In this document: one piece after another, positions 13,928-63,697 of the stretch | Numbering within the stretch: the first letter of the stretch is position 1 | Layout: every line of letters begins with the position of its first letter | NCBI RefSeq assembly: GCF_022045235.1 | Contig: NW_027266308.1 | Location: 60,202,001 to 60,266,000 of the forward strand | Direction of reading: 5' to 3' | Length of the DNA: 64,000 nt | Origin: Haliotis cracherodii | Lineage: Eukaryota | Translations under genes and position numbers: made by a program | Notes under the pieces: model-generated | The model's database searches: none | What the model saw: the letters and a program-made list of their open reading frames with translations, nothing else | Told to the model about the DNA's origin: nothing

Positions 13928-14424
13928 ACCGCATCCGTGATGGATAGAGCGCCGTCCTGAGAGTGGAAGGTTCGATCCCCGGTCGTGTCATACCAAGATA
14001 TGTTAATAATGTACTTGTTGTTTCCCTGCCTGGCGCTCGGCAATAAGAGTGAGTGAGTATGGTTTTACGCCGCTTTTAGCAATATTCCAGCAATATCACG
14101 GCGGGGAACACCAGAAATGGGCTTCACACATTGTACCAATGTCGGATTCGCACCCGGGTCTTCGGCGTGACGAGCGAACGCTTTAACCACTAGGCTACCC
14201 GACCGCACCTCGGCAAAAAGAGGATATAACAAGGACTGGTTTGTTCGGAGTCAGAAGACTGTCTGGATGGGTTACCCATGTCAAACTGCGGCATGGCATC
14301 TCAGTGCACTATAAAACCGGCATTTGTCTGGGTTTGTACAAGCAGCCACACACATGCGCATGGACGTCGCTCAATAATTTTTAACGCGACCTAAAACTCC
14401 ATTCACCTCACCTCACCTCACCTC
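13928..14424 (+). mobile_element. SINE family D, interrupted by a family A insertion
   Basis: tRNA-like head and Meta-like domain; the sequence resumes after 14222 and ends in a (CACCT)n tail. Confidence 0.8.
14050..14208 (-). mobile_element. SINE family A nested in family D
   Basis: TSD ctcggcaa(t/a)aagag at 14036-14049 and 14209-14222. Confidence 0.9.
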
Positions 14425-14425
14425 A

Positions 14426-14700
14426 AGACCCGTGAAGATCCGGGGTAGAATAGGTCTTCAGTAACACATGCTTGTCGTAAAAGGCGACTATGCTTGTCGT
14501 AAGAGGCAACTAACGGGATCGGTTAGTCAGGCTCGCTGGCTTGGTTGATGCATGTCATTGTATCCCATTTTGCCTGGATAGATGCTCATGGTGTCATTCA
14601 CTGGATTGTCTGGTCTAGACTCGATTATTTACAGACCGCCGTCATATAGCTGGAATATTGCTGAGTGCGGCGTTAACCAACCAACCAACAAACAAACAAA
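14426..14700 (+). mobile_element. SINE-like family C, full length
   Basis: Starts agacccgtgaagatcc directly after the family D tail and ends in (AAAC)n. Confidence 0.9.
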
Positions 14701-15399
14701 CCTCTAGATCAACAGCTATGACTACTGTAAATAGAATAAAAGGGACGAAATTAATTCCATAATCATACGAAATCTCTGCAAAAAGCAGACTCGCTTGTAC
14801 GATTCTGACTTTTACATGAGCAAGCGTTTATGAATCACTATCATAGTGATGATACCAAGTATTCGCGAAAACATGTGCGCATCCTGCTCCACCGGGGCAT
14901 CCGTCACAAACACACGCAAAGGCAAGTCAATCATTCACCTAATAAAAACACGGAACATATGGTACAATAAAAAAGGGAATTGCTCTCAGTTTAGTCTCTG
15001 ATGCGTGAAAATGGGAAATTGTAATTTAATAGGGACAGAAGTGTTCCCACTGAAATCGCCCGGTTTAACAATTTCCGGACAAACGAGCAATGGGTACTGA
15101 ATACGTTATACATATACGCGCTTCCAGCAGTAATTGTCAGGAAGGAAGGATTAACGGGGTTCAGACTAATGATGTTGATCATGAAACTACATCGGGTGAT
15201 GATGTTAAATACCATTACTTGGATTAAAATGCCTTATTAAATCTTTTCAACGGTGATATGGTGAGTATTACTTTCTATTTGTTTGTAGATAGTATGTTGA
15301 CATAATAACACACGTTTCAAGAAATACCTTTTTCTTTATCCATATTTTCCCCAAATATATCTCATTACTGAAACTCTTACTTTTTCCCCAATTCTAACG

Positions 15400-15842: not shown

Positions 15843-16293
15843 GGTTGGTTTGTTGTTTAACGCCGCACTCTGCTATATGACGACGGTCTGTAAATAATCC
15901 AGTCTGGAGCAGACAATCCAGTGATTGACATCATGAGCATCGATCCATGCAATTGGGATACGATGACATGCATCAACCAAGTCAGCGAGCCTGACCACCC
16001 GATCCCGTGAGTCGCTTCTTACGACAAGCATAGTCGCTTTTTACGGCAAGCATGGGTTGCTGAAGACCAATTCTACCCCGAAGGGCTGGGACGAGTCCAA
16101 ATTTACTACCGATCCCTATTACCCGACCCAACCCGGGTACCCACTACAGTGAGTTTTTGTCATTAAACAATATATCACGTGACTAACCACGGGTCCGGGT
16201 AGTCCTGTGGGTACCCGGGTCCTACTCAGGACCCACCTGACAAGTACCCGAGTTACCCGTCCCAGCCCTACTACCCCGGGTCTTCACGGGTCT
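15843..16293 (-). mobile_element. SINE-like family C, full length, interrupted by a hAT MITE
   Basis: The family C 5' end resumes at 16271-16293, after the insertion. Confidence 0.88.
16081..16270. mobile_element. hAT-type MITE (190 bp)
   Basis: TIRs (t/a)agggctgggacg / cgtcccagcccta, an 8-bp TSD ctaccccg (16073-16080 and 16271-16278), and subterminal acccg repeats. Confidence 0.88.
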
Positions 16294-20884: not shown

Positions 20885-21450
20885 GCTAATGACATTATGC
20901 AAGTCAATAACGTTATGCTAAACTAGTCAATAATGTTACGCTAGTCAAGTCAGTGACGTTATGTTAGACTAGTGAATGCCGTTATGTTTGTCAAGTCAGT
21001 TACATTATGCTAGTACCCAAAAATATCCGGGTTAGAATTGGTCTGCAGCAACCCATGCTTGTGGGAAAAGGAGAGTATACACTTGAAAAATGGATTTGAT
21101 CATAGAATAACAAACGTTATCTAAACGTTACTAGACTGAAAGACCCGTGAAGATCCGGGTTAGAATAGATCTTCAGCAACCCATTCTTGCCGTAAAAAGC
21201 GACTATGCTTGTCGTTAGAGGCGACTAACGGGATCGGGTAGTCAGGCTCGCTGACTTGATTGATGCAGTCATCGTATCCCAATTGCGTGGATGGCTGCAC
21301 ATGATATCAATCACTGGATTGTCTGGTCCAGACTCGATTATTTACAGACGGCCGTCATATAGCTGGAATAATGTTGAATGCTGCGTTAAACAACAAGCAA
21401 ACAAACATTATGCTAGTCTAGTCAATGATGTCATGCTAGCTCCGTCAATG
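20885..21450. repeat. ~23-bp minisatellite interrupted by a composite family C insertion (21015-21404)
   Basis: Unit approximately acgttatgctagtcaagtcaatg, present on both sides of the insertion. Confidence 0.75.
21141..21404 (+). mobile_element. SINE-like family C, full length
   Basis: agacccgtgaag...(AAAC)n. Confidence 0.9.
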
Positions 21451-37942: not shown

Positions 37943-38896
37943 CTATCTGTAACTAGCATCACCTATGGTCCAAGTATTCTTTTCTTCTGTTTTAATTGAT
38001 TGTCCAAACACTACAACATTTGTTTTATCACTATTAATCTTTAGGTTATTTGTGGCACAAAATATCTTTAGTCCATCAAGTAACACTTGTAGCTTTTGGG
38101 GGAAATCGGCAAATAGAACTAAATCATCGGCAAACAACAAATGACAAATGTTGAAACCATTGAGTGTTAAATTATTGCTATCAGATTTGATATAATGTGG
38201 AAGGTCATTGAGGAATATATTAAATAATGTGGGAGACAAAATGCACCCTTGTCGTACCCCAGTGTTGGATTTAAAGGATTGTGAAATGCCCTTGTCAGTT
38301 TTCACTTTATAAGAGATATCACTGTATAGTGATGATATTATTTTAAATATGTTTCCTGAGATTTTATTTGATAATACCTTTGTTAGGAGTAGTGATCTGT
38401 CAACTGAATCAAAGGCCTTTTGAAAATCTACAAAGCAAATGTATAGTTTTTTCTTTTTACTTTTTGTAGAATCTATTAATGTTTTAAGAACAAATACATT
38501 ATCTGATGTTTGGTAGCCCTTCCTAAATCCAGACTGACAGTGGTCTTGTAATTGATTTTTGTCCATGTGTTCCATTATTCTTTCATTAATAACCTTACAG
38601 AATAGCTTACCTAAGCAGCTGCTTAGTGCAATAACCCCGTAGTTGTTAGGGTCAGTCTTATCACCCTTATGTAATGCGGTAACAACCGAGGCTGCCCAGC
38701 TCTGTGGAAAGTGACCGCTATTTAATACGTCATTAAACAGTTTAACCAACTGGTCTATCAATGAACAAGATATTGATTTTAAAAGTTCGTTACTTATGTT
38801 ATCTTCGCCTGGACTTTTGTTTGTTTTGAATTGTTTTATACAAGTGAGAATTTCGTTAGCTGTTATTGGTTTATTAAGACCGTCACATATATGCAT
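37943..38896 (-). pseudogene. LINE reverse transcriptase domain fragment
   Basis: 317-aa ORF with canonical non-LTR RT motifs, flanked by frameshifts and stops. Confidence 0.92.
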
Positions 38897-39104
38897 ATCT
38901 CCATGTCTTGAAGAATTTTGTAGAGGATTCAGAGAAGATATTTTTGTTTTAGTGTTGTAAATACTCCTGAAGTGGTTTGTTAGCTCCTCAGGGTCAGGGT
39001 AAACAGATTCCTTTTGGGATGAGGTTCTAAGTTTATTTAATAGTTTCCAGAATTTTTGGGGTTCCTTTTTTGACAGGGTTTCCAGTTGTTCAATGTAATT
39101 TTGT

Positions 39105-40047
39105 TTATAGATGTTTTCTTCTGAGTAGCTTCTTGTATTCTTTTTTGGCTAAAAGAGCCCTATTTTTAATTGATATATTGCTTTCTTTATTGAACTCTTG
39201 ATATTTTTGTTCCATATTACGTTTTGCCGCTTTACATTCAGCATCATACCATTGGTTTTTTGGTACATTGGATTTATTTTTGCAAGGTTTTGTTGACAAT
39301 TTGTTGACAGTTTGTAATATATCAGAGAAGGCATCATCAAGCGCTTCACATTCAGAACCATCTTTTGGACTGGAGGTTAACATAAAATTGTTTAAGGCAG
39401 TTTGAATATTGAAGTTTGAGGTAGCATCTTTAACACATGTGTGCCTGTTGGAATGCCAGCGTCTTCTACTCCTGTATTTAGTAAAGTTTACATTTGTGGC
39501 CTTATTAATGTTTTTGTTCATTTTAGGGAGATGATCTGTGGTTACTGAAAGTTTAAGGGATAGCTGGCAGTGATCTGATAACCATGTTAATGGTTTTATG
39601 TTGAAATATGAAATATTTTGGTAGATTCCTTCTGTGACTAACGCGTAATCAACAACGCTATGACCATTATACGTGTGACATGTAAAGTTGCCAAGTCTGT
39701 CACCAAAGGTTCGCCCGTTTAATATTATTAATTTACAGCACGTGGCTATATCAAGGAGCGATTTCCCATAATTATTTGTTTTAACATCAAGACTACATCT
39801 TGGGGTTTGTATGTCTGAGGTTATATCACTGGGTAGGTCTGGCAGGTGATCTGTGTTTTTATTATCAATACATTCATCCTCGCACGCTGTACGGGCATTA
39901 AAGTCCCCCCACCCCACCCCCCAAATGATCTCACCTAAATTAGAGAATTTGATTATTTCTTTAAGGAGGATGTCAAATGGATCAATATTGCATTTTGTCC
40001 AAAATGAGGACCCTTCTGGCGGTATGTAGATGGTACCTATATAAATA
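39105..40047 (-). pseudogene. LINE apurinic-like endonuclease fragment
   Basis: GDFNART, NGRTFGD..G.FTC, SVVDY and LSDH motifs. The frame extends upstream of the listed ORF to the truncation point. Confidence 0.9.
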
Positions 40048-45329: not shown

Positions 45330-47020
45330 TAACAGGGTACTGTCTGCTCGAGATATAAAGGTACTGCTTCATCGGGATATAAAGGTACTGCTTCTTCGGG
45401 GATATTAAGTTACTGTCTGCTCGGGATATAAAGGTACTGTCTCCTCGGTTGGTTGGTTGATTGTTTAACGCCGCACTTAGCAATATTCCAGCTATATGAC
45501 GGCGGACTGTAAAATAATCCAGTCTGGACCAGACAATCCAGTGATTAATATCATGAGCATCGATCCACGCAATTGGGATAAGATGACATGCATCAACCAA
45601 GTCAGCGAGCCTGACCAACCGATCCCGTTAGTCGCCTCTTACGACAAGCATAGTCGCCTTTTACGGCAAGCATGGGTTGCTGAAGACCTATTCTACCCCA
45701 GATCTTCATGGGACTGCCTCCTCGACATATAAAAGTACTGCTTCTTCGGGATATAAAGGTACTGTCTTCTCGGTATATAAAAGTACTGCTTCTTCGGGAT
45801 ATAAAGGTACTGCCGCCTCGGGATATAAAGGCACTGCTTCTTCGGAATATAAAGACACTGCTTCTTCGGGATATAAAAGGGCTACTTCTTCGGGATATGA
45901 CGGCACTGCCTCATCGGGATATCAGGGTATTGCTTCCTCGGAATATCAAAGTACTGCTCCCCCGGGATATAAAGTTACTGCTTCATCAGGCTATAGGGTT
46001 ACTGCCTCCTCGGGATATAAAGGTACTGCCTCCTAGGGATGAAAGGGTACTGCTTTATCGGGATATAAGGGTACTGCTTCCTCGGGATATAAAGGCACAG
46101 CCTCCTCGGGATAAAAAGGTACTGTCTGCTTGAGATATAAAGGCACTGCTTCCTCGGGATATACCGTTACTGCCTCCTCGGGATATAAAGGTACTGTCTC
46201 CTAAAGATATAAACGTACTACTTCATAGGGATATAAAGGTACTGTCTGCTTGAGATATAAAGGTACTGTTTCCTCGAGATATAACGTTACTGCCTCCTAG
46301 AGATATAAACGTACGGCTTCCTTGGGATATATAGGTACTGTCTGCTCGAGATATAAAGGTACTGTTTCCTCGAGATATAACGTTACTGCCTCCTCGGGAT
46401 ATAAAGGTACTGCTTCCTCTGGCTATAACGTTTCTTGTTCCTCGGGATATAAAGGTACTGCCTCCTAGGTTATATAAAGGTACAGTCTCATCGGGATATA
46501 AAGGTACTGACTCCTCGGGATATAGGTATTGTCTGCTCGGGATATAAAGGTACTGTCTCCTCGGGATATAAAGGTACTGCTTCCTTGTGATATATAGATA
46601 CTGTCTGCTCGAGATATAAAGGTACTGCTTCCTCGGGATATAACGTTACTGCCTCCTCGGGATATAAAGGTACTGCTTCCTCGGGATATAACGTTACTGC
46701 CTCCTTGGGATATAAAGGTACTGCCTCCTTGGGATATAAAGGCACTGCCTCCTTGGGATATAAAGGTACAGCCTCCTTGTACTGCCCTATCCGGGATATA
46801 AAGGTACTGCCTCCTCGGGATATAACATAACTGACTCCTCGGGATATGTAGGTACTGTCTGCTCGGGATATATAGGTACTGTCTGCTCGGGATATAAAGG
46901 TAAGGTTTCCTAGGGATATAACGTTACTGCCTCCTCGGGAAATAAAGGTACTGCCTCCTATAGGGATATAAAGGTACTGATTCCTCGGAATATAAGGGGC
47001 TGCCTCCTCAGGATATAAAG
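45330..47020. repeat. ~24-bp minisatellite interrupted by family C (45447-45712, minus)
   Basis: Unit approximately tcctcgggatataaaggtactgcc. Confidence 0.95.
45447..45712 (-). mobile_element. SINE-like family C, full length, inside a minisatellite
   Basis: Reverse complement of the family C consensus. Confidence 0.9.
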
Positions 47021-63478: not shown

Positions 63479-63697
63479 AGACCCGCGAAGATCCGGGTTA
63501 GAATAGGTCTTCAGCAACCCATGCTTGTCGCAAGAGGCGACTAACGGGATCGGGTGGTCAGGCTTGCTGACCTGGTTGATGCATGTCATCGTAACCCATG
63601 ATCGATGCTCATGATATCGAACACTGGATTGTCTGGTCCAGACTCTATTATATACAGACCGCCGTCGTACAGCTGGCGTTAAACAACAAACAAACAA
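63479..63697 (+). mobile_element. SINE-like family C (single-hairpin subfamily)
   Basis: agacccgcgaagatccgggttagaataggtcttcag...(AAAC)n. Confidence 0.88.

Follow-up and report, generated by a model that had tools for sequence, protein, structure and literature searches.

The 5' head of family C, a short retroposon of Haliotis cracherodii, is a conserved and covarying RNA structure that probably defines the 5' end of the element, as the preliminary description of this DNA had proposed; swap tests show that its stems covary, and in several independent families the element starts at the base of S1, the first stem. We consider it likely that this head, the LP domain, represents an undescribed class of functional RNA, either an exonuclease block or a tandem-pseudoknot ribozyme, that moves among non-LTR retrotransposons, SINEs, and RNA viruses. 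It would free SINEs from a promoter of their own, and a LINE with an HDV-like ribozyme upstream of the domain would record natural loss-of-function variants. Our tentative preference between the possible activities, from sequence comparison, is that the head is a 5'->3' exonuclease-resistant RNA (xrRNA) that sets the 5' end of the element.

Family C is a known SINE type (LP-SINE) with a known head; it is the fold and the viral distribution of this head that we did not find in print. The head corresponds to the LP (LINE-promoter) domain known from mollusc SINEs and from LINEs of the Nimb/RTE type, which was taken as a promoter (PMC4758252). In the part of that source available to us, a ~70-nt LP head is common to Nimb-17_LMi, I-3_DR, and RTE-9_CPB and replaces the tRNA head in LP-SINEs, which are named Hdi_LP, Hmi_LP (consensus length, 255 bp), Lsa_2, Oco/Oed_LP, and Sgl_LP, and the L1Tc promoter/ribozyme is offered as an analogy. 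LP-SINEs are known from Haliotis, Littorina, and oysters (PMC4758252, Matetovici et al. 2016). Family C shares with them a ~70-nt non-tRNA head, a LINE-type tail, and target site duplications (TSDs) (PMC4758252), and the features that identify LP-SINEs were found in it, namely, the LP head, variable TSDs, a short tandem-repeat tail, and a LINE-related 3' tail. It may be identical with Hdi/Hmi_LP. Scallop SINEs in the supplement of PMC4758252 have the same core and, judged by eye, fit our model stem for stem; a published scallop SINE starts on C. The available part of PMC4758252 proposes a promoter and gives no structure, virus, R4-like carrier, or partner LINE. Our literature search, which left some key HDV papers and bioRxiv supplements outside its scope, returned no paper on LP structure or viral occurrence, and the core sequence was absent from the available text of PMC10520033 and from one supplement of PMC10085705.

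Family C is ~250 to 275 nt long and ends in a tail of AAAC/AACC repeats. Its exact 33-nt head had 4,636 matches in the 1.18-Gb genome, against 0 for the reversed control, and among 71 copies that were sampled without selection and whose 3' end is intact, 31 reached the first 10 nt. A TSD was called for 57 of 129 distinct full-length copies: 29 were blunt at the first base, 7 stood one base and 4 two bases before it, 6 extended into the element, and 11 ended farther away, the last group being probably mutated TSDs. Under stricter counting, 38 copies yielded 19 TSDs, of which 13 were blunt, 5 had one extra base at the junction (A in 3, T in 1, G in 1), and 1 had two. The base preceding the head was A in 37, C in 24, G in 24, and T in 17 of 102 heads, i.e., flanking DNA, while the first base was G in 83. 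Given the blunt junctions, family C starts at the G of GACCC (position 14427 of the window, the whole 64-kb stretch analyzed), with no excess of extra G. Thus, the common start previously given as (a)gaccc holds, except that its optional first letter is flank. A cap-derived G as the first base of family C was ruled out by the boundary bases and the TSD junctions, with an extra G at 1 of 19.

The copy on which the description centered runs from G1 to the end of its (AACC/AAAC)n tail (14427 to 14702, plus strand) and is slightly decayed; we looked for a TSD around it and found none. The heads reported at 3360, 8741, 14427, 16292 (minus), 21142, 29390, and 63480 are all present, but not all seven belong to full-length copies. 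The element at 3360 to 3505 (plus) consists of the head and ~75 nt, stopping after ~147 nt with its 3' part absent, and the one at 15844 to 16292 (minus) is split after 23 nt by an insert of ~190 nt. This insert (16081 to 16270) is GC rich and has inverted-repeat-like ends. Full-length copies lie at 8741 to 9007 (plus), with a TSD and one extra base before G1; at 21142 to 21407 (plus); and, missing from the earlier list, at 45714 to 45448 (minus), with a TSD. The copy at 29390 to 29631 (plus) has a TSD that ends directly before G1, so that both TSDs reported earlier, at 8741 and 29390, were confirmed. The single-core head at 63480 to 63552 (plus) was the top-scoring copy of the window under our covariance model (72.9 bits) and belongs to the training set of that model. 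Elsewhere in the genome, three family C heads stand in tandem at a spacing of 104 nt (G000:C1:4975531-4975771, L294 to L296). The window also holds a decayed reverse-transcriptase region (37535 to 39235, minus) with similarity to RTE-like proteins (tblastn E value, 4e-38).

As claimed, family C has no tRNA head, and the 64-kb window contains no tRNA gene. The A- and B-box patterns likewise had no match in the family C head; this is a weak test, as the tRNA-SINE that served as control was matched by the A-box pattern alone. Judged by the tRNA search and these weakly validated patterns, family C has neither the tRNA-like head nor the A/B boxes of a tRNA-derived SINE. The proposed Rfam search, run on the window, the head, and 17 related loci, matched no family to the domain, including the models for the hammerhead, twister, twister sister, pistol, hatchet, and hairpin ribozymes. 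At the other end, an APE-RT-RNase H LINE of the same genome has a 3' end to which the 3' tail of family C aligns; in the 14427 copy, this tail domain (14637 to 14676, plus) is homologous to that LINE end and to the tail of a local tRNA-SINE. The terminal repeat is (ACTC)n in that LINE versus (AAAC/AACC)n in family C, and given this difference, a sister lineage of the LINE would be the likelier partner. A tRNA-derived SINE at 14040 to 14210 (minus) has the LINE-type tail in common with family C and a terminal (ACTC)n like the young LINE described below. In three small-RNA runs, 53 reads mapped to family C.

The domain is predicted to form two tandem H-type pseudoknots with an invariant hairpin. 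In pseudoknot 1, the order is S1 5' strand, one U, S2 5' strand, S1 3' strand, AGAAU loop, and S2 3' strand. Its 5' part occupies 14427 to 14444 (plus) in the 14427 copy, with the S1 5' strand (core CCCG) at 14427-14432, the single-U loop at 14433 (U in 26 of 30 instances), the S2 5' strand at 14434-14440, and the S1 3' strand CGGG at 14441-14444; the segment 14445 to 14459 (plus) then holds the conserved AGAAT loop (14447-14451) and the S2 3' strand (14453-14459). Pseudoknot 2 comprises the P3 5' strand, P2 5' strand, P3 3' strand, U, P4, UAA, and P2 3' strand. P3 and the enclosed P2 5' strand lie at 14460 to 14472 (plus), 14460-14463 pairing with 14469-14472 around the P2 strand at 14464-14468, which reads ACACA here and ACCCA in most copies. 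The near-invariant core (14473 to 14490, plus) consists of the U and the P4 hairpin GTCG/CGAC, whose 7-nt loop, U-A-N-R-A-G-G, may be T-loop-like. A 22-nt tandem duplication of the core that ends in TAA (14491 to 14513, plus), with one P4 substitution in this copy, is typical of one subfamily, and the P2 3' strand CGGG (14514 to 14517, plus) closes the pseudoknot.

We scored each stem by its own partner against swapped partners in 30 diverse instances with 5,000 permutations; some of the instances are related, and about five were missegmented by the script. The z scores were 8.7 for S2, 4.0 for S1, 4.9 for P2, and 5.4 for P3, none of which was reached in any of the 5,000 permutations. RNAalifold found P3 and P4 unaided, with 13 double changes at the first P3 pair. 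When 34 sequences were aligned with MAFFT, 89.8% of pairing cells were compatible with pairing versus 80.9% after shuffling, and double changes numbered 51 versus 19 (0 of 500 shuffles), under a shuffle control that ignores relatedness. All seven S2 pairs and all four P3 pairs had double changes in a model-fitted alignment that includes 11 weak rows. P4 is nearly invariant and hence has no covariation support, and single copies folded no better than shuffled sequences (z of -1.8 to +0.5 for seven copies). About 25 bases of the domain are near-invariant, partly as an effect of the search patterns, since all related loci were picked by the core pattern and the invariance of the core is thus partly built in. 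AGAAT, which is outside the search pattern, stood within 35 nt upstream of 42 of 48 core matches.

These tests rearranged the structure drawn in the preliminary description. Its stem GAAGATC/GGTCTTC (S2) is real, but its pseudoknot between the loop GGGT and the downstream ACCC (z of 0.6) and its closing stem between the 5' CCCGT and ACGGG (z of -0.4) scored no better than swapped partners in the 30 instances. The true partners are exchanged: the 5' end pairs with the loop (z of 4.0), and ACCC pairs with the bases after CTAA (z of 4.9). A hairpin does follow, in the register GTCG/CGAC, whereas TGCT pairs upstream with AGYA. We also considered a pairing of GCYT with AGGC and rejected it because viral copies break it. 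The stems covary as stated, on the evidence of other taxa and not of the presumed sister family C', which is a single diverged copy (11961 to 12036, minus) that keeps S2, P3, and P4 and whose best other match among 40 scored was 78% identical.

The misfit to the canonical HDV topology was upheld. HDV-like ribozymes have a nested double pseudoknot with the P1 3' strand after P3 and a P1.1, whereas the covarying helices here run S1-S2 and then P3-P2-P4. The conserved +1 G in a wobble pair was also not found: family C has G as its first base, but other families have C or T. The HDV-like Rfam models had no match on the domain, while the neighboring HDV-like motif of the young LINE was detected. 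An HDV descriptor matched 0 of 47 sequences but also missed the positive control, L116.

A shorter pattern retrieved 12 viral stretches, 8 of them with AGAAT upstream, which represent six distinct RNA-virus contigs and one DNA-virus contig of 212 kb. Five of the RNA-virus contigs encode, respectively, RdRP_4, RdRP_3, a Peptidase_A21 capsid (found twice), a nodavirus-type capsid, and an S-domain capsid; the sixth has a polymerase-like ORF without a Pfam match. In all six, the domain lies on the sense strand, 10 to 175 nt after the last long ORF, and none has it on the opposite strand; the core is 53 to 172 nt after the stop codon and 14 to 119 nt before the contig end. Tandem copies occur in two of the six. 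A covariance model trained on 12 nonviral sequences gave the RNA-virus copies 41 to 66 bits, versus at most 26 for pattern-matched decoys. In the DNA-virus contig, which is presumably iridovirus-like, the domain is intergenic (L031:2960-3040), between a 152-amino-acid (aa) ORF and a long kinase-like ORF on the same strand.

A 23-nt core pattern retrieved 44 metagenome stretches, in which the ORFs downstream of the domain are reverse transcriptases. L058 and L072 encode APE and RT and, as we read these ORFs, would be RTE-like LINEs; L057, which we take to be R4/Dong-like, encodes an RT with a C-terminal zinc-knuckle/PD-type region after an (AAT)n run; and L042 has an APE behind two tandem intact domain copies at the LINE 5' end. 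The ORF starts 12 to 340 nt downstream of the domain in three LINE contigs. Its sense-strand position in the 3' untranslated region (UTR) of all six RNA viruses and its place at the head of R4-like and RTE-like LINEs indicate that the domain works as RNA. In four multicopy families, the copies diverge in their flanks from the point where the first stem begins; family C and the MOX family have G as their first base, and the others have C or T. Regardless of that base, the boundary falls at the base of S1, which is 5 to 6 nt ahead of the loop U. Behind heads other than those of family C, no LINE starting with an intact domain was found in sixteen 9-kb stretches. Among prokaryote genomes, there were five pattern matches; three comprise the full domain, lie on contigs of bacterial metagenome-assembled genomes (L202, L204, and L205) that are short or eukaryote-like, and are likely binned host DNA. 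One contig, L073, is in its entirety a satellite-like tandem array of 74-nt units, each a complete domain, and in L059:3-1043 (minus), a baculovirus F-like ORF begins ~360 nt downstream of the domain.

In the abalone genome, a young and intact LINE of ~6.2 kb (L388:96-6270; G000:C80, near 9137095) begins with a 56-nt minimal HDV-like ribozyme directly followed by the LP domain. Two copies are 99.9% identical, and the element encodes an ORF1 of ~450 aa and an ORF2 of ~1,230 aa with APE, RT, and RNase H. The ribozyme matched Rfam with an E value of 0.0014 and 29 bits, under the curators' threshold of 44. The domain version of this LINE had 785 matches in the genome; all 30 sampled copies had the ribozyme upstream and started at it, and none of the 30 kept the U...U-A-A core. 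Likewise, the LP core was altered in 58 of 60 parsed HDV-bearing copies and intact in 2. The opposed U/U was mostly replaced by a canonical pair (G-C, G-U, or U-A), by at least two routes, and one S2 pair underwent a compensatory change. Among 62 copies, a shared second state was found at 2 of 56 positions of the ribozyme, 13 of 72 of the domain, and 20 of 102 of the downstream UTR; behind the ribozyme, LP thus varies like ordinary UTR. These changes suggest redundancy, in that the usual job of LP would overlap that of the HDV-like ribozyme, i.e., making or guarding the 5' end. No virus had an altered U/U position in a single copy; the upstream member of a tandem in one viral 3' UTR (L229:4213-4288) has G-C in place of U/U, as in the HDV-bearing LINE. 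The ORFs of the young LINE subfamilies are 72 to 79% identical while the first ~300 nt are closely shared, and swapping of 5' modules among these subfamilies is suggested. Many young copies cluster on C2 at 20.8 to 21.7 Mb. One antisense small-RNA species of ~30 nt, a piRNA size, maps to L388:159-189 (127 molecules in run X22).

We favor an exonuclease block because it would account for where the domain sits in viral 3' UTRs, for its tandem copies, for a start that does not depend on the first base, and for a boundary at the S1 base; the lack of a cap-G signature together with the relaxation of LP behind the HDV-like ribozyme supports it. In this scheme, family C copies inside host transcription units would be cotranscribed, and Xrn1/Xrn2 would trim the host read-through RNA and stop at S1, i.e., at the first base of the element. 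The protected RNA would then be reverse transcribed by a Nimb/I-type LINE that recognizes the shared tail, and the element would need neither a tRNA promoter nor a cap. In viruses, the block may yield a short noncoding 3' RNA or protect the end of the genome. Once a LINE had gained an upstream HDV-like ribozyme, which cuts and is nuclease resistant, it could dispense with the LP core; HDV folds are reported to be exonuclease resistant (PMC11371274, available part). As for known systems, xrRNAs of plant viruses stop Xrn1 precisely at the base of P1 (PMC12397905). Like LP, xrRNAs of classes 1 to 3 and coremin are compact and pseudoknotted, lie at the start of the 3' UTR in unrelated viruses, and are sometimes in tandem, and they have a T-loop-like hairpin and a 5' boundary at the base of the first helix (the available parts of PMC12397905 and PMC10520033). 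Indeed, the sense-strand location near the 3' UTR start was found in all six RNA-virus contigs. Unlike them, LP consists of two tandem H-type pseudoknots, has no shared sequence that we could find, and occurs in cellular retroelements, its resistance being putative; our model has neither the three-way-junction double pseudoknot nor the pairing of apical loop and 3' end described for classes 1 to 3 in the available part of PMC12397905.

Several points count against the exonuclease block. [quoted passage not shown] Protected viral fragments would be short, the distance from the domain to the contig ends being about 90 to 200 nt, and the literature search found no xrRNA in a retrotransposon in print. 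Moreover, the loss of the core in HDV-bearing copies is required by a self-cleaving ribozyme but merely allowed by an xrRNA.

Such a ribozyme, of a new class, cutting immediately ahead of S1 and freeing the element from read-through RNA, is possible but rather doubtful. It would account for the sharp 5' boundary without a cap G, the high conservation of single-stranded bases, and, in the HDV-bearing LINE, the uniform start at the other ribozyme with the core gone and the U/U paired by at least two routes while an S2 pair is compensated. LP also heads LINE clades that use HDV-like ribozymes (R4-like and RTE-like; available clade list of PMC5786205). On the other hand, the +1 base of LP is G, C, or T across families, while to our knowledge it is conserved at the cleavage sites of known ribozymes. 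No Rfam ribozyme matched, and a cut right after the last ORF would strip the 3' end of a virus; ribozymes do occur in linear RNA-virus genomes, but those published are mostly before ORFs (PMC13725137, available part). The intact tandems of L042 and the two copies with both the HDV-like ribozyme and an intact core were retrotransposed whole, and efficient self-cleavage would remove them. Intact tandems, the place after the last stop codon in six RNA viruses, and the variable first base fit the block better than self-cleavage.

A third reading, in which the domain is a platform that binds ribosomes, initiation factors, or LINE proteins (resembling a 3'-CITE in viruses and hijacking translation or RNPs in LINEs and SINEs) and the 5' end is made otherwise, is unlikely. 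It agrees with the viral 3' UTR position, the short distance to the ORF in three LINE contigs, the invariant loop bases, and the partial retention of stems behind the HDV ribozyme. However, it leaves unexplained why unrelated families share a start at the S1 base and why the tRNA head was replaced (PMC4758252), and LINE RNA left uncapped by the HDV ribozyme should need a platform more, yet its core relaxes. The published proposal of an internal DNA promoter, with the RNA fold second or incidental, fits the 5'-end position and the tRNA-head replacement (PMC4758252, available part) and has a precedent in L1Tc Pr77, a dual promoter and ribozyme, but it is quite improbable, as a promoter-only role cannot explain copies in RNA viruses without a DNA stage and as there are compensatory changes in four helices, families that start on C, and junctions without an excess of extra G.

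With respect to the 5' ends of LINEs, LP occupies the same position as the HDV-like ribozymes of R2, R4, RTE, L1Tc/ingi, and LOA (available parts of PMC5786205 and PMC8256844) and probably shares their job, a precise 5' end without a promoter. It differs from them in lacking the nested P1-P2-P3-P1.1-P4 order and the HDV-type L3 and in its variable +1 base. The twister ribozyme of Schistosoma RTE is a second ribozyme class at LINE 5' ends (PMC8501958, available part); the LP fold differs from it and has no Rfam twister match. The 70-nt module, common to three clades of LINEs, several families of SINEs, and six mutually unrelated RNA viruses, bears on how the RNAs of promoterless LINEs and tRNA-less SINEs acquire exact 5' ends. 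Should it block Xrn1, it would be, according to our literature search, the first xrRNA found in cellular mobile elements as well as a new fold, and if it cleaves, it would be a new ribozyme class; either activity, if true, would provide a compact tool to protect or define RNA 5' ends.
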